This document shows, one piece after another, positions 1-16,958 of a stretch of DNA of 64,000 bases. This DNA is from an uncultured delta proteobacterium (GTDB lineage Bacteria; Desulfobacterota; Syntrophobacteria; Syntrophobacterales; Syntrophobacteraceae). Both the position numbers and the translations under genes were made by a program. Location of the stretch: contig CAWEHK010000002.1 in the NCBI GenBank assembly GCA_963808625.1, forward strand, positions 1 to 64,000, given 5' to 3'. Below the pieces are notes generated by a model. The model searched no databases. It saw nothing but the letters and a program-made list of their open reading frames with translations, and was not told the origin of the DNA. How positions within the stretch are numbered: the first letter of the stretch is position 1; each line of letters starts with the position of its first letter.

Positions 1-152
1 GCGGCCTTGTCTTCGGAAAAGATCTCTAGGGGAATTGCTGCCTGTCCAAAATTAAGCAGCAACAAGCCAGTATCCCGCAACCTGACCTGCACTACCTTCA
101 CAGAATGCGAACCGATGTCCAAACCGATTAGATTCTCTTTTTTCTTTAACAC
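1..152 (-). CDS. pilM: Type IV pilus assembly protein PilM, N-terminus (runs off window)
   Basis: Manual translation from GTG at 152: MLKKKENLIGLDIGSHSVKVVQV...LLNFGQAAIP. The actin-like 'IGLDIGS' motif is typical of PilM. RBS AAGGGAGGTG lies upstream. Not in the ORF track. Confidence 0.8.
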   Translation of the reverse strand, partial: MLKKKENLIGLDIGSHSVKVVQVRLRDTGLLLLNFGQAAIPLEIFSEDKA

Positions 153-399
153 AGAAACATCACCTCCCTTGCGTAAAAAGACAGTAGTCAGCAGCCAGCA
201 ATCATCGAGATGGCCCGATCATTGCTGGCGCCCATTCTTCATAGTTCATTGCCGGTGCCACGGCACCCACCGAAGGAAGGTTTTGATTGACAACTGCTTG
301 CATTTTTACTTTACCATCCCCGGTTGAAAATATCCGTAAAACCCTTTAGAGTAGGTGCGCCGGTGGCCACTCACCGAAATCCTTCGCAAACAGGAGTCG

Positions 400-1067
400 A
401 TGTTGCAGCTCACAAGCGAGAAAAGTGTGTCAAAAAGCAAGTCAAAAAGTGTCATTCGTGATTATGCCGAAGCCATCATTATCGCTCTTCTCTTAGCTTT
501 AGTGATCCGAGCTTTTGTTATTCAGGCGTTCAAGATCCCATCCGGGTCCATGAAGCCGACGCTGCTTGTTGGGGACCATATCCTGGTCAACAAGTTTATC
601 TACGGGATCAGACTCCCTTACTGGAATGAAGAACTTTTTCACATTAGTCAACCCAACCGCCAAGATATCGTCGTGTTCCGTTATCCGGTCGACCCCTCGA
701 AAGATTTCATCAAGCGGGTGATTGGCCTGCCCGGAGATACCGTGAGAATCCAGGATAAGCAGGTGCTTGTCAATGACCATCCCCTTTCGGAACCCTATGC
801 TGTCTACAGCGACAACAGGATTCTGCCGGCGAGTGCAAGTCCGAGAGACAACATGGGCCCATTGAAGTTCCGCCTCACAGCCTTTTCGTGATGGGGGACA
901 ACCGCGATGAGAGCTACGACAGCCGTTTCTGGAAATTCGTAGATATGGCTGATTTGCGGGGAAAGGCCTTCGTGATCTACTGGTCCTGGAATCGCGATGG
1001 CGAGCTCACTCTTTCCCCGACGCAGAGCTACGTCAGGTGGAACCGCATCGGCAGGTTGCTTCACTGA
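400..1067 (+). CDS. lepB: Signal peptidase I (frameshift near 870)
   Basis: '[19 protein letters not shown]' (catalytic Ser) and '[12 protein letters not shown]' (catalytic Lys); the other frame continues '[16 protein letters not shown]...[11 protein letters not shown]'. Confidence 0.93.
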
Positions 1068-2240
1068 TAGAGAAAGCAATAGCAGACTCCTTCTTTGTAT
1101 TCTTCAAGCTGCTTTGTCCAGCTCGCTTCCACCCTGCTCATATCGTCTCCGTTCTCGAGCCTCTGTCTCAGGGTGCCATCCCCCAGGAGAATGTCTATGG
1201 GCGCTTTCTTCCATTCATACTCATACGGAGGAGGCAACCACGCGAAATCGTTCTTATGAGTATGATAAAGCGCCTGAAGCAATGCCAGCCCTAACCGGTA
1301 AGGCCGGAACTGCTGTCGATCGGTGACGTGAATCTGAAATCCATGACAGGTCTGCCCAGCCCACTTGTCAAAAACAGGTTCAAAGCAAATCGGGCGAAAG
1401 ACTACACCCTCCAGACCAGCCTTTTCCAGACGTCCCAAGAGCTTTCGTTTGTCAATGAAAGGTGCACCAAAGATCTGAAAAGGCAGTGTCGTCCCACGCC
1501 CTTCACTGATGTTAGTACCTTCAAGAAGAACCATGCCGGGATAGAGCAGAGCTGTTTCCCAAGTTGGCATATTGGGAGAGGGGAAGACCCATGCACGGTT
1601 GGTGTCACACATGTAGTTTTCCCTCCTCCATCCTCTCATGGGAATGACGTCCAACTCGCAGTGTATGTTGCATTTTTCAACAATATAGCGCGCCAACTCC
1701 CCCATCGTCAGACCATGACGCATCGGCAGGGGATAGCGCCCCACAAAAGATCGGTAATCCTGACAGAGAATATTTCCCTCGACAGACTCTCCGCTGATTG
1801 GATTTGGTCTGTCCAGCACCACAACTTTGACGCCAATCCGAGCGGCCGCCTCCATGCACAGCCCCATAGTTATGCTGTACGTGTAGACCCTGGTCCCCAC
1901 ATCCTGGAAGATCGACCAAGAGGATGTCGATTTTCTCCAGCATTTCATAGGAGGGTTCCCGCACGGCGCCATACAGACTGAAGATGGGAATACGCAAAGA
2001 AGCATTCCAATTATCCGCTGATTCCTGCATGTTCGCCTGTTTTTCCGCATAGAAGCCGTGCTGCGGAGAGAAGAGGCAGGTGAGCTTTCCGCCATGCCGA
2101 TAAATGAGGCTGCTGGTATGGGTGAATGACCGATCAACGGACGCCTGGTTGGCTAACAATCCCAGGCGTTGAGAAAAAAACCAATGTGGCGCCTCCTCAA
2201 AGAGCACCTCACATCCAAGCTGAATCCCTTCAGAACTCAT
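1061..2240 (-). CDS. DUF1343 / NamZ-family exo-beta-N-acetylmuramidase (frameshift near 1900)
   Basis: 'LGLLANQAS', 'LFSPQHGF', '[10 protein letters not shown]', 'VLDRPNPI', 'PSPNMP', '[10 protein letters not shown]' motifs split over ORFs 1677..2279 and 1061..2137. Confidence 0.88.
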
Positions 2241-2327
2241 TTCTTTTTTTTCACCATTAATCAAAATATGGCAGCCCACATTTTCATGCGCGGCAGTTAA
2301 GGCAATTCTCTATGCCTGATCGAGTTT

Positions 2328-3502
2328 TCAGTCTTTTGCGTTAGCGCAACTCGCGGCAACGGGGAGATGCACCATAAAATTAGCGCCACAGCCGGATTCA
2401 CTGATCACTTCAATTTTCCCGCCATATTGGTGAACCAGTTCTTTGCAGTAGTAAAGCCCGATTCCCATTCCTGCGCTACCCATGATACTGGAGGTGGCGG
2501 ATTTCGTGCTGACGAAGGGTTGGAAGATTTGGTCCTGCAGGTGCCATGGAATACCCGGTCCCGTGTCTTGAATGCTCACATGAATACGCCGAAGCATCAT
2601 GCCAGGACTTAATGGTCAGACGTTTTTCCGACTTGCTCGATCATCGCTTCAGCCGCGTTGCGGAGGATATTCCCGAAAATCTGGTTCATTTCCAGGGGAA
2701 TGCCCCGAAAAAGCGGCAGATTGTCTCCAAGTTCCCACCTTTTTTCAACCTCGTGCTTGAAATAAGGTTGGCATTCAAGGAAAAGAACCTCCTCGCGCAA
2801 GAGTTCATTAATCTGGATCCACTCCAGCCTTCGGCTCTGAGACGACCTCATCCTCTGCATGATTGCCGAGACGATTTCCCTCATCCGTTGCGCTTGCCTT
2901 TGGATAACGCTGACATTCTCGAGGTCCGGATGAAGGATTCGCAGAAACTCAGCCTGCCCCATGATACTCATAAGCGGATTGTTCAAGTCGTGCAATATCC
3001 CGGCAAGAAGCCTCCCCGTTTGAATCAAGGGCTCCACTTCCGAAAACCTTACAATCTGTTCCTGCAATTGGGTTTGAAAGGACATGATCTGTCCCCGAAG
3101 GCACGCCATTTCCTCCTGAACCAGCCGGGTTTCATGCAGGTTTTCCCGTGCCCGATCCAACGTGTCTTTCAGGTAATCCAGATCGATCGGTTTGGTGATA
3201 AAGTCAAAAACCTTCAGGTGAATGGCATCGATCGCCGAACCGAGGGTGCCGTAGCCGGTAAATACAATAATTGCCGTACTCTCATTCAGTTTTCGGATTT
3301 CGCTTATAACTTCAAGTCCCGACATCCCTGGCATCCGCAGGTCGGTCAACACCAAATCCGGCTTCACTGTGCGAAAAACAGTAAGACCCGCGCTACCGTC
3401 CTGGGCCTCGTGTACTTCGTATCCTTCGTCTTCCAGAAATTCTCTTAATCCATCGAGGACTGCCTGTTCATCATCAATGATCAATATTGGAGTACCCTGC
3501 AT
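2328..3502 (-). CDS. Hybrid REC-HisKA-HATPase protein (frameshift near 2610)
   Basis: N-terminal receiver 'ILIIDDE...DLVLTDLRMPGMSG', H-box 'AGILHDLNNPL', N-box 'NILRNAAEA'; G-boxes 'DTGPGI...GMGIGL' in ORF 2328..2600. Confidence 0.88.
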
Positions 3503-3668
3503 TGCGGAGGCCTTTCTAGCTTGCAGATGTTCGCAAATCGTTTCTGCGATTATGCTGTCCTCAAAGGCAAGTTGATGACGCGCCCCGGCTCCGCACCCGG
3601 AGCAGTGCGCCAGCAGATCCAAGCCTATCAATCAACTTGAGATCATCCAGGTCAATTGCTCGCCACGT

Positions 3669-4052
3669 CTAATGCAGCGCGGCACGCGTAATGTCTTCCA
3701 CCTCATCGACGTCAAGAGGTTTCCGAAGGTACTTGTAGACTCCGTATTGTCGCGCCATCTCTTCATGGTGGTCTTGAGGCAATGCCGTAACGATCACCAC
3801 CTTGGTGGGCATTTCCCGGTCATGCATCCACTTCAAAAGTTCCATGCCGCTCATGCCTGGCATCTTGATGTCCAGGAAGAGCAGGCGAGGGCTTTGCTGG
3901 ACGCAGCAGCTGAAGGGCTTGCGTTGCCGCTGTTCACCATCGTAAGCGAATAATCATCTCCCAGCATAGCATCAAAGGAATCCAAGATCCCCTGATCATC
4001 ATCCACCACAACAATGGATTCTCACCTTCCCTGTTCATCTTCTTTCCTCCAT
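3669..4052 (-). CDS. Single-domain response regulator (frameshifted; start approximate)
   Basis: 'IVVVDDDQGILDSF' then 'LLFLDIKMPGMSGMELL...VVIVTA...YLRKP' in another frame. Confidence 0.8.
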
Positions 4053-4347
4053 CTGCTTGGAAGCAGCACAATTTCAACGAGCCTGTTCATGGCTTATCTT
4101 CGATCTGTCATTGGGACATTGTCCCCTCCGGCAGACACTTGGCGGAGGTGGTCGGTAACGCGAGCAAAAGGCCCAGAGATCAACCCCGATAAGAATCAAT
4201 AAACAAAAAGAATGCCAAAACCGGGATCAACGGGAGCAGGACGAGAAAAGGCAAGGATAGGCTGGCACACATCGGGGAAAGAAGATGCCCAAGGAATAGT
4301 GGCGGAATTGCTGCACAGTTTGAAGGGCAAAATATACGCAACCGTGG

Positions 4348-6267
4348 TCAGTGAAGAGCAGGTCGATACTTCTCCCTGCATGCAGGGAGATAGACAACGA
4401 AAGAACTCCCCTCACCGACCCGACTTTCGACCTCAATATGTCCGCCATGTTCGGTGATAACCTTATGAGTAATGGCCAAACCCAGTCCTGTTCCCCTGTC
4501 TTTTGTGGTGAAGAAAGGGTTAAAAATATTCTTCAGCAGTCTCTGGAGCAATGCCAACCCCGGTATCTGCAAAGGTGAGGGAAACCCAGCCATCTCTGTT
4601 GGGATGGCATGGGTTTGTCCGAGACCATCCTCCGTTTGTCGACGTGCCCTCGAGAGTCAATCTGACCACCATTGGGCATAGCCTGGATCGCATTCCTGAA
4701 AAGATTGTAGAAGGCTTTGACGAGCTGGTCCGAGTCAGCAAGAATCGGAGGCAGATCGGGGGACAGATTAGTCACGCAATTGATCTCGTTGATTTGCAGT
4801 TCACCTTCGAAAAATTCGACTGTCTGTACCAGAAGCGGCTGAAGTTCTAGGGCATGGAAAATGGTACTTAGGCGTTCTGGAAAGCTCCAGCAGATCCTCA
4901 ATCAGGACGATTGATCCGATCAAGCTCGCGCGGGACCGTTCGCTGGAATTTCTCCAGAAAATCGGGTTTGCTCACTTTCCTGGGGAGCAACTGCACAAAG
5001 GTTTTGATCGCGGAAAGCGGGTTTCGAATTTCATGCGCCATTCCTGCAGCCAGGGTGCCCAGCGCTGCCAACCGTTCTGCCTGCCGAATGCGCACTTCGA
5101 GGCGCTTTAGCTCCGTAATATCGTGCAGGTTAGTGATCACCTCAAGAGGACGTCCCGCATCGTCTGCAAGCAGGCTCGAATTGGCCAAAATAATCTGCTC
5201 TTCACTCCCATGGCCGATTCGCAGTTCCTGTTGGGTTCGACCCTTTGGGTCCTGCAGCACTTCTTCAACATAGGAAAGCACCATCGGGGCCTGCTCGAAG
5301 ATCATTGATGCATTGCAGTCCTTCGAGACTCCATCCGAGATGCCTAACATGCGGCACGCTGCCGGGTTGATAGCCGCAATGTTGCCACCCTTGTCCACAG
5401 AAAGCAGTCCGTCACTCATGGTGGTCAGCAGTCTTTGAGTGTAGGCCTGCAGGCGCTTGATCTCCGATAGCTGCGACTCGAGTTGTTGCCTTTGGGCAAG
5501 GATTTCTCGCATCATGGTGGAGAAATTGGAGGCCAGTATTTCGACTTCATCACCCGTTTCAACATCGATGTTTTGGGACAAATTGCCTTGCGCAGCCTCT
5601 ACTGGTAGCATTGACCAATGTCCCCAGAGGGCGAGTAATGCGTCGAGCGCCCCAGATAGAGAGCACGATCCCGATGATCAGCGCGACACAGCCAATGCCG
5701 ACAATAATCAATTGTGTCTGGCGAATTTGCTGGTACATGGGCGCCAGCGTCACGGCCACGCGGATCGTTCCCCAGCGGTGATCCGAACCCCGAATGAAGA
5801 CCGGTGCAGCAATATCCATCACGGGCATGCTTTCAGCTCCCCAAGTTGTGGTTTGCGTGGCAGGCTCTTCCGCGGAGAGAGCTTTCAAGCTGACTTCATC
5901 CTCCAACAAGGTGCCTTGCAGATCCGCTCTTCCACTGTACCCCGCAACACGCCCTTCCTTATCATGGATGATCACATAGACAATATCCGGATCATCCCTC
6001 TGAGTTTGATTGGCCGCTTGTTCAAGGGCAATGTAGTTGTACGTAGCCAAGGAGGCCTTCGACGTAGCGGCAAGGCTTCTTGATATGGCCAGGCCTCTTC
6101 GCTCCAACTGTTCTCGGATTGTTACACTTTGGTGGGTGATAAGAATGGAGCCAAGCGTTCCTAAAAGGAAGAATCAATAAGCAGGAAATAATGAAGATAA
6201 AGCGGTAACGCAGGGAAATAAAACGACGCTTATTCAGGGGCCGTTTTCTTGAAGGTCGCTCTGACAT
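4348..6267 (-). CDS. Membrane sensor histidine kinase (TM-periplasmic sensor-TM-HAMP-PAS-HisKA-HATPase; several frameshifts)
   Basis: TM after '[10 protein letters not shown]', periplasmic '[14 protein letters not shown]', TM2 + 'RRITRPL' HAMP, PAS 'DGLLSVD...INPAA', H-box '[12 protein letters not shown]', 'NLFRNAIQA', '[13 protein letters not shown]'. Confidence 0.88.
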
Positions 6268-6285
6268 AAATTGGTTTGAACCAGA

Positions 6286-7931
6286 CATCAGTGTTCGGAA
6301 GGAAGTTCGTAACCACACGCGATGGAAGGAGACAGCCTCTTCCCCAAGTGCGGTTACCTCAATCCCGCGAACCGATGACTGGTAAACACGGTCGACACTC
6401 AAAAAAAAGAGCGGAATCATGGGACAGGACTCCGCAGCCATTTCTTCAATCCGCTGGCACAATTTGGCTCTTTCGGTAAGGTCCACTCTCTGGCTCGCCT
6501 CTTTCAGGGTAGCATCGATTTCCTCATTTCGATAACGCATGTAGTTGACCTGGGAGAAGGATGCAACGAAGAGGCTGCAGAAAACTATCCGGATCAGGCA
6601 TGTCCGCAACCCACGCATACCGATAGATTTGCAGCGAATCAGATTTGAGGTATTGCTCAAATTGCGACCAGTCAGGGATGAACTTCGGCACCATCCGGAT
6701 CCCCAACTGACTCCAGGATTCGCGCACCAGGTCGAGCTCAGCCAGCGCCAGTGGGGATTGGCTGTTTGAAACTACTTCAATGGTTGGCAGGGCATCCTCC
6801 TTTGCTCCGAAGACGCTTTTTCACTAGGCTTTTTGCCAGGTCAAGGTCATAGAACCACAGCTTACTCTGCGGCAGATAACCGGGCATGCCGGGTGGCAGA
6901 AGTGATTGAGCTGCGTCGAACTGACCTTTGTATACCTCCGAAATGATCTTCTGACGATCAATTGCCGCCGCAAGCGCCTTTCTCAACTCCAAATTCCTTA
7001 ATAAAGGATGCTCGCAGTTGAATCCGTAGAACAGAGACTGAGAGACGGTCGGTGCACCCACCGTACGCTCTTTGTTTTCCAGCAGCTTTGTCACGGAATT
7101 GCCAGTAAGCAGGCATCTCCTCAAGCTTGCCGTTTTGAAAGTCAGACAGGACGTCTTCTATGTTGCTGCCTGCATAGATGAGAAACTGGATTTCTTCCAG
7201 ATACGGCGCTCCATCATAATAATCGGCAAATCTTTCGAAGCTGGATATTCCTTTTTTGCTCCCACGAGGACAACTGAAAGGGCCAGTGCCAATCGGATTC
7301 TTGCCGAAGGCTTCTGCCTTAGAGGCTCACTTCCTCCCTGGGGACGATTTTGGCCTGGTACATCCCAAGAGCCGTCAGAAACGGAGTGTAAGGTTCGTCG
7401 AGCCTCACAAGCAAGGTATGGTCATCCTCGGCGCTTAAGCCGGCGACCCGATCACTCTTTTTTTCCATGAAATCCTGCGCACCCGTGATCTTGAGCAAAT
7501 GGGGCAAAATGCTCGGAGGTGGATTCGCCCGAATCAGACGGCTCAGAGAAAATATTACATCTTGAGCGGTAACCGGACGACCGTTATGAAACCGAACATT
7601 CGGTCGAAGGAAAAATCGGTAAAGTTTTCCTTTCTCCTCCACTCGCCAGTTCTGGGCCAGAGCAGGTACGATCAAAAGGTCCGGATTTAATTGCACCAGC
7701 CCATCAAAGATTTGTAGTACTACTGTCATGCTATAGAAGATCTTCGACAAAGGCGGGATCAAGGGTAGGAGGTTCATTTCGCAGAGGGATGCGATAGACT
7801 CCCCCCGAACGAGGCTGCTCTTCAGAAATGCCGTCGTTCGTGGTTTCCATTAATGCTTCGCCATTCGCATGGAACGAACTTAAAAGCAAGAAGGAGACCA
7901 ACACACAGGCATGCAAGCGAAAACAGCTCAT
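6286..7931 (-). CDS. Family 5 (OppA/DppA-like) extracellular peptide-binding protein, no permease genes adjacent (frameshifts; 3' end approximate)
   Basis: Signal peptide, 'RSGGVYRIPLRNEPPTLDPA', 'IFDGLV...PALAQNW...YRFFLRPNVRFHNGRPVTAQDV', 'PIGTGPF', 'LRKALAAAIDR', 'WVADMPDPDSFL'. Confidence 0.87.
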
Positions 7932-8011
7932 CTTTCAGCGCCTCTTACTCTACGGATTAATAAGGTCAGGTGTGATCGGTTGTCATTCTACCCCCTTTTC
8001 CGCCTGTGTAC

Positions 8012-8044
8012 AAAAAGAAAAAGCACGACTCTTTCGACTCGCGC
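8012..8044 (-). terminator. Intrinsic terminator after the tandem micro-peptide genes
   Basis: Minus strand GCGCGAGTC-GAAA-GAGTCGTGC hairpin (one mismatch, one G-U) followed by TTTTTCTTTTT. Confidence 0.7.
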
Positions 8045-8086
8045 TCTCTCCATCCCATAAGGGATTCAGCTTATGCGATTGCCAGA

Positions 8087-8179
8087 CTACGGCCCCCCGC
8101 CACCAGCAGCCAACACCGGCAGGGCATAGGTGGCGACCAGAGCACCAATCACGAACAGTTGAAGAACTATCTTTTTCAT
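8087..8179 (-). CDS. 30-aa secreted peptide precursor A: MKKIVLQLFVIGALVATYALPVLA-AGGGGP
   Basis: Manual translation: 93 nt ATG..TAG, RBS GAGGGG, basic n-region, hydrophobic h-region, P-V-L-A c-region, 6-residue tail. Below the ORF track cutoff. Confidence 0.8.
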   Translation of the reverse strand: MKKIVLQLFVIGALVATYALPVLAAGGGGP

Positions 8180-8216
8180 CATCTTTCCCCTCTTTATTCT
8201 TAAGGGTGCGAATTAA

Positions 8217-8310
8217 CTACGGTCCCCCGCCGCCGTGCAGCCAACACCGGCAGGGCATAGGTAGCGACCAGAGCACCGATCACGAACAGTTGAAGAACTA
8301 TCTTTTTCAT
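8217..8310 (-). CDS. Secreted peptide precursor B, paralog of A (one extra base; likely ...PVLA-xGGGGP)
   Basis: First 24 aa identical to copy A with only synonymous changes. 94 nt to the equivalent TAG. Removing one base in GCAC restores (A/D/H)GGGGP*; as read it gives ...AARRRGTVVNSHP* ending at 8200. Confidence 0.72.
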
Positions 8311-8392
8311 GATCTTTCCCCTTCCTCAGGCTTGATGATTATTATTTGTTGAGAATACCACCCCATTTTTGTCTTGTTTCGTTAAACTTACA

Positions 8393-8408
8393 TGCAAACT
8401 GCATACCA
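8393..8408 (-). promoter_or_regulatory. Sigma54 (-24/-12) promoter upstream of the peptide genes
   Basis: Minus strand TGGTATGCAGTTTGCA with exact GG-N10-GC spacing, ~80 nt upstream of copy B ATG, followed upstream by a very AT-rich tract. Confidence 0.78.
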
Positions 8409-8700
8409 ATAAAGAGTATTATTCTTACTATTAATAAGTACTTAGAAATATTATATTATAATTGAATAGCGTCGGGTCACGGAAAGGCGCCGACTTGAGG
8501 GACTTGCACAGATTTGAGTAAAACAAAGTGAATGGAATACCGGCAGAGAACTAAAGAATATACGCCAGCAGCTTATGTGCCTAGCCATGTGGGCTATTAT
8601 GCACACATTAATATGCAGCTGCTCAGGGAGACCACCACAAGAAGCAGCGTGAACCGGAGAATGGCGCGGCCGACCAGCAGATCTCCCTTGTTCACGAAGG

Positions 8701-10098
8701 CTATTCATCTGTCTGGGAACGCAGTTCCAGTATCTTCATCTTCTGAAGAAGGGTATTGCGATGGATTTTGAGGACCCGTGCCGTATCGGTTTGATTCCAT
8801 CGGCACCGCTGCAAGGCTCGTAAAATATACTGCCGCTCGAACTCTTGTCTTGCGCTGGATAAGGCCCAGGTCGATCGCCGTTTCATCTCTTGTCCGTATG
8901 TTCCCCGGCTTCCTCTCGGATCAAGAGATCAAAAGGAAGGTCATTCTCATGAATCCACTGGTCAGGTGAACCTAACACGACCAATCGTTCAATAAGGTTC
9001 TCCAGTTCTCGGACATTCCCTGGCCATGGATAGGATTCCAGCACCTCCATAGCATCAGGGCCGATTCCTCTCACCCTCTTGTTCAAGACACGGTTAAATT
9101 TCGCTAGAAAAAAGTTAGCCAAGAGCGGCACATCTCCCTTGCGTTGACGCAGGGGCGGGAGTTGAATAGGAATGACATTAAGCCTGAAATAAAGGTCATT
9201 ACGAAATTGCCTTTCCTTGATGAGCTGTTCCAGGGGAGTGCTGGTTGCGGCAATGATCCGGACGTCCACTTTGATTGTCTGATGACTGCCCACTCGCGAA
9301 AACTCTCGCTCCTGAAGCACCCGCAGCAGTTTCGCCTGAAATTCGAGTCTGAGGCTCGATACTTCATCCAGAAAAATGCTGCCCCCGTGAGCATACTCGA
9401 ACTTGCCAATATTTCGAACATAGGCGCCGGTAAATGCGCCCTTCTCGTGCCCGAAGAGCTCGCTCTCTATCAATTCCGGCGGAATAGCCGCACAATTAAT
9501 GGCCACGAAAGGCTTTTGATTGCGAGGGCTATGCGCGTGAAGTGCACGAGCAACCAATTCCTTCCCGGTCCCGCTCTCTCCGGAAATCAGCACATTACTG
9601 GAAGTATCCGCAACCTTTTCGATAATCCGAAACACCGCACCCATATTTTCAGCCTGACTCATGATCTGCATGTGGCCGATATCCAGCCCCGTGCCCCGAT
9701 AAGCTGGCTTTATCTCCCCCTTCATAGACTCGCCTGGTGATGACCTTCTCGACAGCTTCCAAGATTTCGTCAGGCTCATAAGGCTTGGTAATGTAGTCAT
9801 AAGCGCCCGACTTGAGCGACACCGTAGCTTCTCGAGCCCGGTCGGCGCCGGACACCATGATTACCTCAATAGCCTCATCGTAATCCTTAATCCATTTCAA
9901 CACTTCAAGGCCGCTCACCTTGGGCATGTTCACATCCAGGAGCACCAGATCAAAGGGCTTTTCCTGGATTCTGGCCAGAGCACTCATCCCGTCTTCCACG
10001 GTCTCTACGTCGTAATGTTCCTCAAGGATAACTTCAAGGGACTCCCTTGCTCCTTCTTCATCATCCACTATAAGGATGTGTCTTGGTTCCTCACGCAC
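8701..10098 (-). CDS. Sigma54-dependent NtrC-family response regulator (REC-AAA-Fis HTH; frameshifts near 9700 and 8885)
   Basis: REC 'ILIVDDE...DLVLLDVNMP', Walker A 'GESGTGKE', 'ELFGHEKGAFTGA', 'WPGNVRELEN', HTH 'WNQTDTARVLKIHRNTL'. Confidence 0.93.
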
Positions 10099-10368
10099 TA
10101 ATTTCCTCCATCTATCCTCTAATTCCCTGTAAATTGTTATGGTGTTAATAACACAAGGGAAATTATCCGGTCAAGGGGCGGTGTGGGACACTCACCTTTG
10201 CTTTTTGGAACGCTAAGCCAAAATCGCATCAGTTTCCTTTTTGATACACGCAATGCACGGTATAATAATGCTTGAACTCTTTTTTCGGTTCCGTATGCAG
10301 TGCAAGACTGGCAATAATCCTACTATTATGAACCAGTTGAGGGCCTATGTACAGTAACTCGTTGCCTC

Positions 10369-11748
10369 ATGATGAAATCATCTCGGATTGTGGGAAGGGA
10401 AAATACTCTCACTGATCGAGAAGAACTCACCTGTTACGGTTACGATGCCAGCAAACTCAGGGCCTTGCCCGATGTGGTTGTTTTTCCAGGCAGTATGGAG
10501 GAGGTCGCAGCACTGATTAAACTGGCGAATCGTAAGCGGTTTCCGGTCTTTCCCCGAGGGGCAGGCAGTGGCATGGTGGGGGCGGCCGTGCCATGGAACG
10601 GTGGGATGGTCATGGTGCTCACCCGATTGAATCGGATCCTGGAAATCGATCCCGACAATATGGTGGCAGTTTCAGAACCAGGGGTAATAACTGGAGAATT
10701 TCAAAAGGCCGTTTTGCGTCATGGGCTTTTCTATCCACCCGATCCGGCCAGTCTTCAGTTCTGCACCCTTGGCGGCAATGTCGCCATGTGCGCCGGAGGT
10801 CCCAGAGCCGTCAAATACGGCGTCACCCGAGACTATGTACTGGGACTGGAGGCGGTTTTACCGACGGGTTCCGTCATCACCACCGGAACTCGGACCATGA
10901 AGGGTGTGGTTGGATACGATCTTACCCGCCTTCTCGTGGGGTCCGAGGGAACTTTGGGGATCTTCACGAAGATTATTCTTCGCCTGGTCCCCGCACCGGA
11001 AGGCGTGCGCACCCTGATGGCCGTTTTCCCGAATCTGGAAGGGGCGGCAAAAACGGTTTCGGCTATCATCAAGCAGCGCATCGTTCCTTCCACTCTCGAA
11101 TTCATGGATCAGGCCACGATCAAGGTCGTAGAGAACTACCTGCAGATGGGGCTGCCAACCCAGTCTGAAGCGATCCTTCTGATCGAGGTAGATGGCCGTG
11201 AATGCCTCCTCGACGGTGATGTGGAAAGGATCGGAGAAATCTGTCGTCAATGCGGCGCTTCCGAGGTCGAAATCGCCCATACCGAAGCTGAGCGAGAGCG
11301 TCTGTGGCGGGCTCGAAGAGCGGTTTCACCGGCGCTCGGCCAGATCAAGCCAGGGAAAATCAATGAGGACGTGACCGTCCCCCGTACGGAAATCCCGGCA
11401 CTCATTCGCGCGATCCAACAACTGGCAGAAAAATACGCCCTTACCATTGTTTGTTTTGGTCATGCTGGCGATGGCAACATCCATACCAACATCATGCTGG
11501 ACCGAAACAACAGGGATGAGCTCAGGAGGTCTGAGATGGCCGTTGAAGAACTGTTTCGGATTGTGCTTGGACTCGGAGGCACCCTGTCAGGAGAACATGG
11601 GATTGGCATCACCAAGTCCCCCTTCTTGCAGTGGGAGATCGGAGCGGAAGGTTTCGAGGCAATGTGGCGAATCAAGACAGCACTTGATCCCCTAAATATT
11701 CTGAACCCCGGGAAAATGTTCGTCCCCAACCGAGCCTTTTTTAACTAA
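10369..11748 (+). CDS. glcD: FAD-linked oxidase, glycolate/D-lactate dehydrogenase GlcD-like subunit
   Basis: 'PRGAGSG', 'YPPDPAS', 'GGNVA...GGPRAVKYGVT', 'GHAGDGNIH', 'SGEHGIG', 'DPLNILNPGK'. Confidence 0.85.
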   Translation: MMKSSRIVGRENTLTDREELTCYGYDASKLRALPDVVVFPGSMEEVAALIKLANRKRFPVFPRGAGSGMVGAAVPWNGGMVMVLTRLNRILEIDPDNMVAVSEPGVITGEFQKAVLRHGLFYPPDPASLQFCTLGGNVAMCAGGPRAVKYGVTRDYVLGLEAVLPTGSVITTGTRTMKGVVGYDLTRLLVGSEGTLGIFTKIILRLVPAPEGVRTLMAVFPNLEGAAKTVSAIIKQRIVPSTLEFMDQATIKVVENYLQMGLPTQSEAILLIEVDGRECLLDGDVERIGEICRQCGASEVEIAHTEAERERLWRARRAVSPALGQIKPGKINEDVTVPRTEIPALIRAIQQLAEKYALTIVCFGHAGDGNIHTNIMLDRNNRDELRRSEMAVEELFRIVLGLGGTLSGEHGIGITKSPFLQWEIGAEGFEAMWRIKTALDPLNILNPGKMFVPNRAFFN

Positions 11749-11754
11749 TTTTCG

Positions 11755-11892
11755 CTACTGCTGCGAGGCGGCAATCTTTTCCAGAACTTCCAAATTCCTG
11801 CCCAACCGTTTCTGGTTGGTCTTTACATTAGTTTTGTTTGCCCGGGCTTTCCGGGCGCGAACTTTCTCGGTCTTTTGAGTTTTTGAAGCCAT
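11755..11892 (-). CDS. 45-aa basic hypothetical protein
   Basis: MASKTQKTEKVRARKARANKTNVKTNQKRLGRNLEVLEKIAASQQ*, RBS GAGAGGAG. Not in the ORF track. Confidence 0.65.
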   Translation of the reverse strand: MASKTQKTEKVRARKARANKTNVKTNQKRLGRNLEVLEKIAASQQ

Positions 11893-12075
11893 GTTGTTGC
11901 TCTCCTCTCACAAATCGGCTTTTTTCATGTGACGAAGCGCCTATATCATCTTCCGCTTTTCGTTGTCACGAAAAACTTCGGTGAAAGCATTGATTCATCC
12001 GGATTGACAGGCAACGGGTTCGCTCGATCCGATTCACCAGCCTCTGGAGTGCCGGGTAGCTGGCCGCCACAATGA

Positions 12076-13212
12076 TTATGCAGCCAGAAATAGAGCTGCT
12101 TCCAGGCACGAGGAAGATATCGCAGGAAATGGCGTTTTGCCTTTAACCAGCCCGAGATAGCTGTAGGCCCCAAGAACCTGCAGATTTCGGCAGAGGCGAA
12201 GCACGCCATAGGATTTCAGGAAACACCCAAAGGAACCATCCTGATAGCGACGCGCTTGCGACCAGTACAGGGCAAGGGCTTTCCTTTCCATTTCCGGGGA
12301 TATCCGGACATAAGGATCGATCAGGAGCGAGGCGAGGTCGTAAGCGGGAGGGCCGAAGCGCATTCCCTGAAAGTCTATAAGCCGCAACCGGCGCCCATGG
12401 ATCATGATGTTACGGCTTTGAAAATCCCGATGAATGACATGCGACAAAGGTAGTGACGCCGGCAGCTTCGGCGATATTTTCAAAATCATGGCGGAGGTCG
12501 TCAGGACCAATTTCAAGCCCGAGACAACCGTTGAGGAAGCGTTCGCGAAAATATTCCAATTCCCGTTGGTAAACGAAAGCAGAATCGTACACGACGGTAT
12601 CAAAACAGTAGCCTGTTTCAAAACCCTCCCGAGCTCGCCGCTGCATATCCACCAAAAACTGCACGACGCGATGATAGACGGGAAAGAGATCAATTCTGCG
12701 CCGGTTGACAAGGGTTTGCAGATGGAAGTCACCCAGATCTTCAAGCAAAAAGTACCCCTGGGCAAGGTCAGCCCAATAGATGCGGGGCACTGGCACGTTG
12801 CGGCGGCAAGAGATGATTGCCAATAAGGAAATACGAATCGTTTTCGTCGATTCCCTCGGTGCTTCTGCCGGGGAGAGATCAGAGCAATCAGGTGGAAGGT
12901 TCCGTCGCGAACTCGAAAAAACCTTCGTTCAGAACCATCACCCAAAAGCGCGCTCAACTGAACCCGATCCTTAGAAAACCCTGCTGCTCCCGAGCATTTC
13001 TCGAACCAGATTGGAGAATTCTCGATCGAGACAAGCGTTCAAAAAGTCCTCCCCTGGCGTTTCGACTGAAGGCCGCGCCGAGAAAAAGCCTCGAAAGCAG
13101 TTGTTCGGGGCCGGAAGGATCGCTCGCCTTCGGCTCGGAATAGGTCTTCCGGAGAGACCACACGGCTCGCCAAAACTTCACCTCACTGATCCGATGAGAA
13201 TCTCGTTTTCAT
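12076..13212 (-). CDS. Aminoglycoside-phosphotransferase-family kinase, AmgK-like (frameshifts; start approximate)
   Basis: 'GDGSERRFFRV', 'FLLEDLGD', 'HRDFQSRNIM', 'IDFQG...GPPAYDLASLLIDPY', 'RNLQVLGAY'; adjacent to a MurU-like gene. Confidence 0.8.
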
Positions 13213-13227
13213 GGACACCCGCCACCA

Positions 13228-14148
13228 CTACTCCATCGCCACAATGCAATTGCGCAGTTTGCTTTGCGGGTGAACTTCAACATCATCCCAGAGCACCGAG
13301 TCCTCGACTTCTGCTCCGTCCCCAACACGCGTTCCTCTGCCAACTGAAACATATCCTCGCAGGTGGGAAGCGGGGGAAACTTCGGCCTCAGGATCAATCC
13401 AGACCTTTTCTCCGGTTCGCAACGGGGGGATGAGATTCTCTTCCAGGTTGCGAAGTTCCCCATGCAGGAGTTGGTAGCTCTCAAGAGACCCTGTTTCCCG
13501 CCAGAAAAATTCCGGCATCCGCAGGGCGTGAGGCGGCTGCCCGGAGTGGATCATTTTCCTGTAAACCGTCAGGATGTCTTCCGGGTGGCCTGCGGGGAAA
13601 CCTTCCAGAATCCCCGGATGGACAATCTGGATCCCGGTAAAGGCCAGGCATTGTCGATCCGAGCTTTCCCTTGTGAGTCCCCGCGCTTCTTCTCCGAAAC
13701 CCAGAATGCGCCCCTCAGAGTCCACGGCAACATTATTGAATTCCGGGCAATCATGCAGGAGAAGACCGGCGGGAGATCCGGATTCGAAATACTGGTGCCG
13801 GAGGCCTGGAAGAGGAACATTACAGATGATGTCCCCGTTGACTACCAGGAAAGGCTGTTCCTCGAAAAAATCGAGAACATTTCTGATGCCTCCGCCCGTG
13901 CCCAAGAGTACGGGCTCGACTCGAACCTGCACGGGGATTGGCCAGCGCTTCCTTCGGACTGCTTCCGCCAGTGGCTCATGGAGATGATAGGCGTTGATCA
14001 CAACCGCTTCAAACCCGGCGTGATGAAGGCGCCAAATCCAAAAGTCAAGGACGGTAGTCCCGGCGATGGGCACCAGGACTTTGGGGCGAACCAGGGTCAG
14101 CGGGCGCAGCCGGGTTCCCAGCCCCGCAGCAAGTATCATCGCCCTCAT
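13228..14148 (-). CDS. NDP-sugar nucleotidyltransferase (MurU/GMPP-like) with C-terminal hexapeptide repeats
   Basis: 'MILAAGLGTRLRPLT..RPK', 'LGTGGG', 'VVNGD'. Confidence 0.85.
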   Translation of the reverse strand: MRAMILAAGLGTRLRPLTLVRPKVLVPIAGTTVLDFWIWRLHHAGFEAVVINAYHLHEPLAEAVRRKRWPIPVQVRVEPVLLGTGGGIRNVLDFFEEQPFLVVNGDIICNVPLPGLRHQYFESGSPAGLLLHDCPEFNNVAVDSEGRILGFGEEARGLTRESSDRQCLAFTGIQIVHPGILEGFPAGHPEDILTVYRKMIHSGQPPHALRMPEFFWRETGSLESYQLLHGELRNLEENLIPPLRTGEKVWIDPEAEVSPASHLRGYVSVGRGTRVGDGAEVEDSVLWDDVEVHPQSKLRNCIVAME

Positions 14149-14204
14149 GATCGTGATTCAGGGCAAGCGATTGAAGACATCGTGGTTAATCAAACATTTT
14201 CTCG

Positions 14205-16958
14205 TTAATCAAATACCTTAATCACGACTGCGGCCCCCAGCGCTGACTGGTAGAGGATCTGGACCCAGTCTTTCAACTCTCTCATCCAGGCGATTCTCTC
14301 AATCTCTACCGGTACGACTATCGTATCTCCTGGCTCAATCAGACCGGGGGACCCGGATTCCCATTGACGATTGCCGCTATTCCAGAACAGGCCCCAGCCC
14401 GGTCTAATCGTCGAGCCATCCACCTTGACGATGTAAAGTTGACTCTTATCGGCTGCTCTACTGAATCCGCCGGCGCGATCAACGTAGTAGGAATAGTCCT
14501 TGGTGGGCTCGAACACGAAGTTGGCTTGGCTGTACACCGCACCGATGACCTGAACGGTTTGGGGATTCATCGGGATCTGCAGTACATCACCATCTTCCAT
14601 CTCTACATCCAGGGCACTGTTTCTGGACTTCCTCGCCTCATCAACGTTGACCACCATTCTGCCGCTCACCTGGAACTGCTTCAAACTGGCCAAAAATGCC
14701 TGCTTTTGTTTCGTTTCGGTCATCTGAATCTCGGCATCCGCCGCACTCAGTGATCCGGCTATATCCGCGGAGGACATGGCCAGCAACTCTTTTTCCAGTC
14801 TCCCGACCATCTCATTGATTTGCTTTTGCTGAGTATCTTTGAGGGACAATCGCGTTAGCGTTGCTCCTCTGAGATAGGCTTTGTCGGTGAATCCTCCCGC
14901 CCGATCAAGGAGAGCGGAAAGCCTTTCTCCCTTTTTCAAAGCGTAGTCCCCCGGAAATTTGACTTCACCGGTGATGTTGACCTTGCGGTAAAGCTGCCAA
15001 TCAGGAACGGCCCTGACAAAAAGGTAGTCGTCCTCCTGCAGGGTAATGTCGGCCTCTGAGTCTCCGGCAAGGGCCTCATCCGGGTTAACTGAAAGTTGCT
15101 GAGTCATGGGTCCGGTCGCCATCGGCGTGACCCTGGTCAGTTCCGCCTTCGAGGTGTACGCAAATTTTCTGAATCCCCCGGCGAGCTTCAACAGATCGGA
15201 GAGCTTCATGTTCGGTCTGAACTCAAATTCCCCGGGCTTGTTCACGGCACCCGTGATCCGGACCTTTTCTTTTTGAACCATCTCCCACTTATTGAAGACG
15301 GTCACGATATCATAGGGTTCGAGTAAAATATTGGTTGTAGCTGTCAGGTCTGAACAGGACCGCCTCCAAATCAAACGAGCGATACTCCTGATGGTAATCG
15401 GGAGGAACCAGTCTGGTCACCAGAGCATAGTTGAGAAAGGTATCCGGGAGCAGACTGCCAACCGCCGGGAGCAGATCTCTGGCGCGCATCCCGGGTTTCC
15501 ATTCATATTCACCCGGCCTTCTGACGTTTCCCTGAAGCACGACTTTGTTGGTTACCTGAGGAACAATGGGGAATATTTTGACAATATCCCCATCCTGCAG
15601 CGGGAATATCATGATTTCCTTTGAAATATGCTCCAGGTTGACATCGACGATAATTTTGGCTCTGTCTTTGGAAGACTCGCTCCACCTGCACCCTCTGCAG
15701 ATATGCGGCAGCAGTCACTCCTCCCGCCAATTTAAGGCCTTCGGACAGCATCGTTTTGCCCTTCAGCTCATAAATGGCTGGCCGCTCGACGTTTCCGGCG
15801 ACTCCCACGATGGGGCCAATCGGCGGGATAAAGATGACATCCTCGGGCAAAAGTCTCATGATCTTTGGTCTTATCACCCCTGATGAGGAAATCGTACAGA
15901 TCCAGATGTCCGACTGTCTCGCCATTCCTCTTCAGTTGGATCCCTCGCATACTGCCGGCCTTACTCGGCCCCCCGGCCACCATGAGGGCGTTGACGATCG
16001 TGGAGAGAGACGACACCGAATAGGCTCCGGGGGCCCGGGCATTGCCAACCACATACACGGTTATGGTCCGGAGTGACCCCAGGCTCACGTTCATTTGGAA
16101 GTCTTTGTAGTACTTTGATAGTTCCTTCAACAGGAGTTCCCTCAGCTCCTGGAAATTCAGACCGGTTACACCGATGGTTCCCACTTTCGGAATGGAGATA
16201 TTTCCATCCCGATCCACAACCGCGCTCCACGAGCCCTCAATGCCTCCCCAGACCGCAATGCGGACCTCATCTCCCGGCCCTATCACATAATCCGGACCCA
16301 CCGGGACATTGGCCGAAGGGTATGCCGAGAGCCTGGATGCGCGGCGCCGGTATTCCCTGAAAAACGGATCGCACCCTGAGGCACGGTCTGGCCACAGGAG
16401 ATGCTCCGCCGCAGCCTTGCCTGAGATAAATTGTTCAAACGGAGCACCAGGCGTGGCCGCCGCTACCTGGCAAGGATGCAGCAGCTCCGCCCAAAAAAAG
16501 ATCGTAACCGAACTGTTTGATATCAAATGAAATGGTTGCGGGAATCATTCCTGACACATATTGCTCAATGGGGGATAGCTCCTGGTCTGCTGGGGAGCGG
16601 GCTGGCATGGAGTAGAGCGCCCCGTCACGCGGAGTTCGGAACCCGCCGGAGGTTGCTGTCCCGGCGTGAGTTGGACCAGTTGAGGATGGGTATGCCACAC
16701 CTGGAAGCCCGGGGATTGAACACCGGGCGGACCAGCAGAAACCGATGATGGCATGCCCGGCGCCGAGGGGCCTTGAACTGCCGGTCCCTGGGCTTGTGGG
16801 GCTGCCCCGTGGGGGGGGTCGCAGCCCCACCCTCGTGGACCACCACCAGGAGCCGGCAATGGCAATACCGGGACAACCTGTGAAAGGCTCAGGCTCGAGC
16901 AAAGAAGGCTGCCGATGAGCAACCCCAAAAAGACCAATTTGATCCTGAAAGTCATACT
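14205..16958 (-). CDS. Polysaccharide export protein with multiple SLBB domains (Wza/KpsD-like; frameshifts)
   Basis: 'PDYVIGPGDEVRIAVWG...VDRDGNISIPKVG' Poly_export motif, repeated 'V.I.G.V..PG.Y' SLBB units, C-terminal 'PGDTIVVP'. Confidence 0.85.

Follow-up and report, generated by a model that had tools for sequence, protein, structure and literature searches.

Conserved micro-genes encoding a putative exported peptide accompany a binding protein-kinase pair in the Desulfobacterota

We analysed a 64,000-nucleotide stretch of DNA from an uncultured delta proteobacterium (assembly GCA_963808625.1, contig CAWEHK010000002.1, positions 1-64,000; hereafter the window). On its minus strand, from 10098 to 2328, it carries an NtrC-type activator gene, two micro-genes, and the genes of a periplasmic binding protein, a sensor histidine kinase, a single-domain response regulator and a receiver-kinase hybrid. 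The micro-genes belong to a family that is a conserved, unannotated signalling module component of the Desulfobacterota. Their product is a predicted signal peptide followed by a short glycine-rich tail, and we give about an even chance to the reading in which the binding protein-kinase pair recognises this tail, once exported and cleaved, as its ligand, and the peptide thereby acts back on the sigma-54 promoter from which it is expressed.

Coding status and distribution of the micro-genes

The two micro-genes of the window are tandem open reading frames (ORFs) of 30 codons, each with a purine-rich ribosome-binding site. Micro-ORF 2 (8182-8087, minus strand; translation MMKKIVLQLFVIGALVATYALPVLAAGGGGP) encodes a signal peptide, made up of MKK, a hydrophobic stretch and the residues P-V-L-A, and the hexapeptide AGGGGP, and is recognised from its sequence, its place in the family alignment A1 and its coding signature. 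Micro-ORF 1 (8310-8200, minus strand) has the same first 25 residues and is 89% identical to micro-ORF 2 over residues 1-28. As assembled, its tail is out of frame and ends in ...VLAARRRGTVVNSHP, with one extra base in a G/C-rich run. Without that base the tail would match that of micro-ORF 2, the consensus frame stopping at 8219-8217, and the shift is probably an assembly indel. The two micro-genes of signal peptide plus hexapeptide that the initial annotation had proposed are hence present and genuine, the first with a frame-shifted tail in the current assembly.

A search with fragments of the binding protein recovered intact orthologues, some 550 residues long, from 24 of the 36 genomes of the family to which the window belongs and from some other families. 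At all 25 orthologous loci (L005-L029), one to three similar micro-ORFs stand directly upstream of the binding protein gene. The initial annotation had held that clusters of binding protein, kinase and activator lacking the micro-ORFs would speak against it; every cluster examined has them. Because of this recurrence and the strong coding signature described below, the arrangement of the six units is far beyond chance.

Alignment A1, of 31 peptides, has the consensus MKKxxxQLFVxGxxxAxYALPVLA-x-GGGG-x. Among 55 distinct genes, single-base codon differences read in frame comprise 16539 synonymous and 4245 non-synonymous changes, and this ratio is inverted in the two shifted frames (2020 vs 16817 and 2023 vs 16820). 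By codon position, the differences number 27166 at the third, 13972 at the first and 7431 at the second, and all four codons are in use at P21, A24 and G27. The regular expression with which the genes were collected fixes a few positions, so that conservation is inflated there, the contrast between frames being unaffected. By these signatures the micro-genes are genuine conserved coding genes under strong purifying selection.

No Pfam or NCBIfam model matches the peptide, and a protein atlas search with it returned solely unnamed clusters of 29-33 residues; gene length across the family is likewise 29-33 codons. The A1 profile gave 73 hits at E values up to 0.001 among 1.84 billion representative proteins, and about 68 of these were judged by eye to be family members after three long repetitive proteins and two doubtful ones had been set aside. 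Every one of the roughly 68 matches ends exactly at the C-terminus of its protein, with tail variants that include EGGGGP, GGAGP, GGSGP, DGGGY and GGGGPW. Of 401 genomes sampled evenly across the phylum, the same profile hit 9, which belong to four families, and in the genome of the window the peptide matches this locus alone at E < 0.01.

A degenerate DNA pattern applied to one genome per species yielded 97 loci, 54 of them true members by hidden Markov model and 43 chance matches in unrelated taxa. The figure of 54 is a lower bound, because the pattern misses variants such as SEGGGL, GGAGP and GTG starts. The record names of the true loci include Syntrophobacteraceae, Syntrophobacter, Desulforhabdus, Desulfobacula, Desulfobacterium and Syntrophaceae, and among the named strains are Desulfoferrobacter suflitae DRH4 and Desulfocicer vacuolatum DSM 3385. 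All 54 carry either a Desulfobacterota-type name or a generic label ('uncultured bacterium'), except for one metagenome-assembled genome labelled Tectomicrobia.

Copy number is 1-3 per locus, with 11 copies at a 160-bp period in one metagenome-assembled genome. This array (L140; CAWANO010000001.1, locus 5001-6693) consists of four distinct DNA versions with the tail RGGGGL; a single sigma-54 element precedes it and an insertion sequence-like ORF follows, and the array reflects either genuine amplification or an error in the assembly of repeats. Separately, the signal part of the micro-peptide weakly matches the N-terminus of a 373-residue ORF at another place in the genome, G000:C22:15947-16021 (60% over 25 residues, E 0.02), which may be chance or may hint at an origin of the micro-genes from a truncated exported protein.

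Transcription signals and partner genes

A -24/-12 element of the sigma-54 type (TGGTATGCAGTTTGCA, that is TGGTAT-N5-TTGCA) lies before the micro-genes at 8393-8408 on the minus strand. In 49 of 52 loci, the 300 nt before the first micro-ORF contain an element that departs from TGGCAC-N5-TTGCW at two positions or fewer, usually 60-130 nt ahead of the start codon; the background is 0.05 sites per 300 nt. The sigma-54 promoter first read from the window is thus conserved across the family. Further upstream, a region at 8505-8605 (minus strand) holds two TGTGCA half-sites (8605-8600 and 8510-8505) and is followed by an AT-rich tract at about 8470-8415. TGCACA or TGTGCA occurs in 32 of 38 distinct upstream regions, compared with 8.4% of random 220-nt windows; the sites cluster near -100 and -200 from the promoter and often form inverted repeats, like enhancer sites of the NtrC type. 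In Syntrophaceae-type loci other palindromes take their place. We regard the TGTGCA sites as candidate binding sites of the activator.

An intrinsic terminator, a hairpin with a U-tract at 8011-8045 (minus strand), closes the micro-ORF transcription unit. The fold of 8052-8008 has an energy of -22.3 kcal/mol (z -4.84), and 0 of 200 shuffles were as good; the hairpin was detected by folding, a simple consensus terminator scan of 7600-8800 having listed none. Hairpins of -13 kcal/mol or lower with a T-run within 160 nt after the last micro-gene were present in 45 of 53 loci, compared with 10 of 200 random windows. Since a conserved sigma-54 element stands before them and a terminator after them, the micro-genes form their own short enhancer-dependent transcription unit. 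The binding protein and kinase genes lie behind this terminator. A weak sigma-70-like match before the binding protein gene (7985-8012, minus strand; 9 of 12 hexamer positions) is a lead only, sites of this kind being no more numerous in the region than in shuffles. A search of the genome of the window for further sigma-54 elements with an upstream TGTGCA gave four sites, one of which is the micro-gene promoter; no convincing target gene lies behind any of the remaining three. A screen of sequencing runs for window positions 7300-8700 listed no RNA run, and seven DNA runs shared just 5-7% of the sampled words with this region.

The next gene (about 7931-6290, minus strand; ends approximate) was delineated from SBP_bac_5 fragments and orthologue mapping and encodes an orphan family-5 (Opp/Dpp-type) periplasmic binding protein with an N-terminal signal peptide. 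Its orthologue matches PF00496 (SBP_bac_5) at 1.9e-77, and an AlphaFold model of the orthologue (mean predicted local distance difference test score 77.8) was assigned by Foldseek with probability 1.00 to DppA, MppA, HbpA and OppA, with a TM-score on target of up to 0.82. By sequence and fold, the closest solved relatives are DppA, HbpA/GbpA, OppA, MppA and also PrgZ, all peptide binders. The genome has 12 matches to the BPD_transp_1 permease family (PF00528), none of them on the window contig (C2), in keeping with the lack of a permease that had been noted for the window; another paralogue of the binding protein, on contig C1, adjoins permeases.

In a HMMER alignment, D466 of the orthologue from locus L034 corresponds to Asp408 of E. 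coli DppA (1dpp) and is invariant in 17 of 17 orthologues, and an Asn aligns to Arg355 of DppA. We take Asp408 to bind the free alpha-amino group of the ligand and Arg355 to bind the carboxylate of a dipeptide. The Asn at the Arg355 position therefore argues against a DppA-like dipeptide binder and is compatible with a longer ligand. If these residue roles are right, the protein would be built for peptides of more than two residues whose amino end is free; the cleaved hexapeptide would fit these features and an uncleaved, membrane-anchored one would not. Co-folding of the mature binding protein (A2, residues 52-569) with the 30-residue precursor (A3) gave scores of 0.32, 0.13 and 0.25, the mark being 0.32, and speaks neither for nor against binding.

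Behind the binding protein gene lies the sensor histidine kinase gene (about 6300-4348, minus strand), whose Pfam domains, read with the help of an intact 653-residue orthologue, run in the order membrane segment, sCache_3_2, membrane segment, HAMP, PAS, HisKA and HATPase. The HAMP-PAS kinase of the initial annotation thus also has a periplasmic sCache_3_2 domain, located between the two membrane segments, that had been left unmentioned. It is followed by a single-domain REC response regulator (about 4030-3669; 120-residue orthologue) and a REC-HisKA-HATPase hybrid with REC before the kinase core (3538-2328; 401-residue orthologue), both recognised with Pfam on the same strand. The activator gene at the other end of the cluster (8701-10098, minus strand) encodes REC, an AAA+ sigma-54 interaction domain and HTH_8 (Response_reg 3.9e-31, Sigma54_activat 4.8e-72, HTH_8 6e-14), and an intact 471-residue orthologue has the same domains. 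Pfam hits and sequence reading together place all six co-oriented units, as originally claimed, on the minus strand from 10098 to 2328.

In relatives the gene order is activator (471 residues), micro-gene or micro-genes, binding protein, kinase (about 650 residues), REC protein (120 residues) and REC-kinase (about 400 residues). The kinase gene directly follows the binding protein gene, its start lying -28 to +73 nt from the preceding stop codon in five relatives. For the 54 true pattern loci, 43 had usable flanks, 11 having at most 300 nt on each side. A match to the binding protein, the kinase or both lies directly downstream of the micro-genes in 40 of these 43; two of the remaining three have no downstream sequence and the third is the 11-copy array. 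In most of the 43 loci the activator gene either precedes the micro-genes in the same orientation or follows them in the reverse one. Loci of the Desulfobacterales type are rearranged, with the REC and REC-kinase genes upstream on the other strand and the activator gene downstream on the other strand, the six genes still being together. The binding protein-kinase pair, activator, REC protein and REC-kinase hence travel as a unit even where the gene order has changed.

In genomes of the Syntrophobacteraceae type the module is flanked by genes for NamZ, an AmgK-like protein, a MurU-like protein and signal peptidase I, as seen in the window (355-2240 and 12015-14148) and at L034 (2259-4345 and 13875-15817). 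Within up to 5 kb of flank at the pattern-scan loci, LepB and NamZ occur at none, the AmgK-like gene at 3 and the MurU-like gene at 1. A cell-wall link of the module through these genes was set aside, as they are rarely or never near the pattern-scan loci and the association is probably lineage synteny.

When the 401-genome sample was searched with the binding protein, 12 genomes reached 350 bits, the level taken for orthologues, and the next best hit had 223 bits; nine of the 12 are those with micro-genes. In the other three the binding protein is 36-38% identical, and no micro-gene, kinase or activator is present there. In two of these three its gene stands behind that of an sCache_3_2-HAMP-GAF-HD-GYP protein, and a gene for a secreted subtilase (Peptidase_S8) accompanies them (L170, G317:C1, 6384-12181; L171, G126:C74, 5370-10903). 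At L172 (G088:C111, binding protein 331-1956) the binding protein gene and a class IV aminotransferase gene were seen, the contig starting just upstream of the former. This sister module may be a peptide-sensing input to cyclic di-GMP turnover. From its pairing it follows that the binding protein goes with an sCache sensor whatever the output domain, which supports an older pair with exchangeable output and a role of the binding protein as co-sensor.

The proposed circuit and its alternatives

In all 31 aligned peptides an n-region of MKK, or of MKKAKR in one clade, precedes about 17 mostly hydrophobic residues. All 55 distinct genes have P at -4, A at -1 and V or I at -3. Of all columns, +1 varies most, with 21 codons, and it never contains Pro among the 55 genes and the approximately 68 library representatives. 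By the von Heijne rule, a signal peptidase I site has small or aliphatic side chains at -3 and -1, a residue that breaks helices between -4 and -6, and any residue but Pro at +1. Judged by this rule the site appears near-ideal for signal peptidase I, and the peptide is probably exported and cleaved.

When copies from one and the same genome are compared, 83 of 504 residues differ in the signal part and 0 of 126 in the tail; the DNA of the tail differs at 35 of 378 bases and every change is synonymous, these counts being descriptive and given with no formal test, as the same-genome pairs are few and related. The synonymous changes include TGC/TGT and TCA/TCC at position 1 and AAT/AAC, CCT/CCG and GAT/GAC at position 6. 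Between species these two positions vary widely, position 1 being A, N, G or F within the genus of the window, and the G-x-x-G core of the tail is conserved across orders. Selection appears to keep the tail uniform within a genome and to let it differ between species, a pattern which suggests that the tail is the active part and is matched to a receptor. Its uniformity therefore argues against a throw-away stub, a signal-peptide-derived pheromone and a leader peptide.

In the circuit that we propose, the NtrC-family activator would drive a dedicated sigma-54 unit consisting of promoter, 1-11 tandem micro-genes and terminator. The precursor would be exported via Sec and cut by signal peptidase I. 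The freed tail (x-G-G-G-G-x, 5-7 residues; AGGGGP in the window) would be bound by the adjacent permease-less binding protein, which would dock on the sCache domain of the co-transcribed kinase and alter kinase output. The phosphate signal would return to the activator through the REC and REC-kinase proteins, so that the cell would sense a peptide of its own making. The initial annotation had read the cluster as a peptide quorum-sensing circuit with a positive autoinduction loop. This interpretation is partly supported: the micro-genes are genuine, their promoter is conserved, they have their own terminator, and a permease-less Opp/Dpp-type peptide binder is always found with the kinase. Binding of the peptide to this protein, contact between the protein and the kinase, and phosphotransfer from the kinase to this activator are predictions; the loop may be positive, and the peptide may leave the cell and report cell density, so that the label 'quorum sensing' is an inference.

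Several observations weigh against the cleaved tail as a signal. Cys stands at +1 in 17 of the 55 genes, in several lineages, where it is the commonest first residue of the tail, and lipidation or disulfide formation could there replace a free amino end; such species may have lipidated, disulfide-linked dimeric or metal-binding peptides. The motif is not a canonical lipobox, since the invariant Pro at -4 presumably does not fit a PROSITE-type lipobox pattern, and the window peptide has Ala at +1. Conservation of the hydrophobic part (Q7, F9, G12, Y18) exceeds what signal peptides usually show, and this part could have its own function. Six residues make an exceptionally small mature product for export through Sec and cleavage by signal peptidase, one for which we know of no precedent, and a core of oligoglycine is poor in information for a signal that has to be specific. 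No binding protein or kinase gene was found within 5 kb downstream of the 11-copy array of L140. Finally, in the window genome, frame changes mapped against the intact orthologues break every large gene of the cluster one to three times.

The strongest alternative is that the binding protein-kinase pair senses exogenous peptides, released by extracellular proteolysis or cell-wall turnover, and that the micro-gene product is a regulated bulk output to the envelope or periplasm and not the ligand. The sole recognisable sigma-54 promoter of the locus drives the micro-genes, which makes them an output, and their tandem amplification up to 11 copies suggests a bulk product. The closest solved relatives of the binding protein take up environmental peptides, and the sister module, in which a related binding protein and sCache sensor occur with a secreted subtilase and without a micro-gene, keeps this explanation alive. 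However, the micro-gene is found solely beside this pair, and the pair in its kinase form solely with the micro-gene; tails that are identical within a genome and different between species are what a receptor-matched ligand would show, and a free glycine hexapeptide has no evident effector role. We regard this explanation as unlikely, if far from negligible.

The invariant P(-4), V/I(-3) and A(-1) and the free +1 position answer the needs of signal peptidase I and not those of a membrane anchor, which bears on a second alternative, that the 30-residue product stays uncleaved as a single-helix inner-membrane protein whose periplasmic glycine tail modulates the kinase in MgrB-PhoQ-like feedback. 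The hydrophobic stretch of about 21 residues, with its unusual conservation at Q7, F9, G12 and Y18, would suit such a protein, and expression by the system's own regulator matches small-protein feedback as we understand it. Nevertheless, paralogues of one genome diverge in the helix and not in the tail, the binding protein retains the Asp that we take to hold a free peptide amino end, and 3-11 gene copies would be superfluous for a protein that modulates the kinase stoichiometrically. We therefore consider this explanation improbable.

Independently of the question of function, the module could have decayed in the window genome, its frameshifts being real and its genes pseudogenes. All large genes of the cluster and the first micro-ORF change frame, the activator gene occupying three frames, the binding protein and kinase genes at least three each, and the REC and REC-kinase genes two each. 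However, the flanking genes for signal peptidase I (LepB), NamZ and the kinase-like (AmgK-like) protein are broken at similar density, and the genome is only 84.6% complete in 54 contigs, so that the frameshifts are best read as assembly indels and not as decay. The aligned pieces of the broken genes also keep 50-80% identity to their orthologues with no internal loss, and the GlcD and nucleotidyltransferase genes near the cluster are intact. Decay accordingly has little likelihood. Indel errors appear to be spread over the assembly, and genes of this genome have to be interpreted against their orthologues. Frame changes were seen across window positions 1-16500, for instance at 355-1064, 1064-2240, 12015-12987 and 14205-16526, and polysaccharide-export-like ORFs are among those affected.

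Two further explanations fare worst. The active product could be the cleaved signal peptide or its Y-A-L-P-V-L-A end, as in the enterococcal sex pheromones, with the glycine tail as a throw-away stub; the strong conservation of this end, the free variation at +1 with its frequent Cys, and the presence among the relatives of the binding protein of PrgZ, an OppA-family binder of a hydrophobic signal-peptide-derived pheromone (4faj, 2.6e-52), would agree with it. Selection nevertheless acts on the tail, as the 83 of 504 signal differences against 0 of 126 in the tail and the synonymous nature of the tail changes indicate, and the G-x-x-G core is kept across orders, which renders this explanation very improbable. 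An attenuation leader, in which four consecutive Gly codons of a short ORF sense glycyl-tRNA and control read-through of a terminator 20-70 nt later into the binding protein-kinase operon, is scarcely credible given the strong purifying selection and signal-peptide pattern of the rest of the peptide, the tandem copies (2, 3 or 11) each with its own ribosome-binding site, the variable distance from stop codon to hairpin, the unit's own enhancer-dependent promoter, and the lack of any Rfam leader or riboswitch match at the micro-ORF, no formal search for alternative antiterminator pairings having been made.

Peptide signalling between cells is regarded as a hallmark of Gram-positive bacteria, double-membraned bacteria being known mainly for small-molecule signals. 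Going beyond a cleaved tail that acts as the ligand of the binding protein-kinase pair, we tentatively suggest that an unmodified, ribosomal, Sec-exported linear hexapeptide (x-GGGG-x) could be a diffusible autoinducer between double-membraned anaerobes, read outside the cytoplasm by an orphan OppA-like protein together with a sensor kinase and a sigma-54 activator, with positions 1 and 6 behaving like pherotypes; this is possible, although we would not call it probable. If true, Gram-negative bacteria would have their own equivalent of the peptide quorum sensing of Gram-positives, assembled from different parts, in a compact, sequence-defined module of peptide gene, extracytoplasmic receptor pair and transcriptional activator. 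The carriers are sulfate reducers and syntrophs of dense consortia, biofilms and granules, where sensing of density would be useful. At least three carriers are cultured, namely Desulfocicer vacuolatum DSM 3385, Desulforhabdus sp. TSK and Desulfoferrobacter suflitae DRH4, whose predicted tails are TGGGGP, CGGGGN and CGGGGR, respectively. The predicted ligand, a simple hexapeptide, is commercially obtainable, so that the hypothesis is directly testable. Even if the loop were homeostatic rather than social, a gene-encoded ligand for a kinase that depends on a binding protein would be a new design. The micro-genes, at the lower size limit of gene callers, are also an example of functional genes that annotation overlooks. 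In the full-text literature available without subscription we found no description of the peptide family or of this architecture.

Comparison with known systems

The gene of the binding protein is adjacent to and co-oriented with that of a periplasmic-sensor kinase, as in kinase pairs that depend on a binding protein. Like CBP-ChiS, LuxP-LuxQ and TorT-TorS, the module pairs a periplasmic binding protein, here with no transport role, with an adjoining sensor kinase that has a periplasmic domain. CBP belongs to family 5 of the binding proteins, and in LuxPQ the downstream regulator LuxO is also a sigma-54 activator. The ligands of these three systems differ, being sugars, autoinducer-2 and trimethylamine N-oxide, which are enzyme-made or environmental and not gene-encoded peptides, and their loci hold no ligand gene. 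For CBP-ChiS of Vibrio, control of the kinase by ligand binding to the binding protein is described (PMC7564644).

The Phr/Rap, PapR/PlcR and NprX/NprR systems share with the micro-genes a short ribosomal precursor with a Sec signal peptide and a species-specific C-terminal penta- to heptapeptide. Recognition by the OppA family is a further likeness, and B. subtilis OppA with a PhrE-derived pentapeptide (8are) is among the structural neighbours of the binding protein. In the Phr-type systems, however, the peptide is re-imported by Opp and met by a cytoplasmic RRNPP receptor, in place of which the present module has a binding protein-kinase pair; no gene for a receptor of the tetratricopeptide repeat type occurs among the annotated neighbours and no permease on the contig. 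The module also differs from the Phr-type systems in its double-membraned host, in the lack of a pro-region, the tail starting at the signal peptidase site, and in its sigma-54-dependent transcription.

A third likeness is to ZraP-ZraS-ZraR, in which an NtrC-type activator fed by a kinase drives the sigma-54 promoter of a small exported component that acts back on the kinase. ZraPSR is described as a sigma-54 envelope stress feedback system (PMC4987338), and one of the references of that paper names ZraP as a repressor in its title. The micro-gene locus has the same combination of an NtrC-type activator and a sigma-54 promoter before an exported accessory gene, and ZraR and ZraS are among its NCBIfam neighbours, below cut-offs. 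Unlike the 30-residue precursor, ZraP is a folded periplasmic protein, and ZraPSR has no binding protein of this kind; the peptide, having no Pfam or NCBIfam hit, was not assigned to the ZraP/CpxP/Spy family. In MgrB-PhoQ, a two-component system induces a tiny hydrophobic protein, which is presumed to act in turn on the kinase. The micro-gene module differs from it in the invariant signal peptidase motif, the six-residue periplasmic part, the multiple copies and the binding protein, and there is no likeness in sequence.

Collectively, the module resembles three known designs at once, namely kinases that depend on a binding protein, exported linear pheromones and sigma-54 feedback systems, and is a member of none of them.

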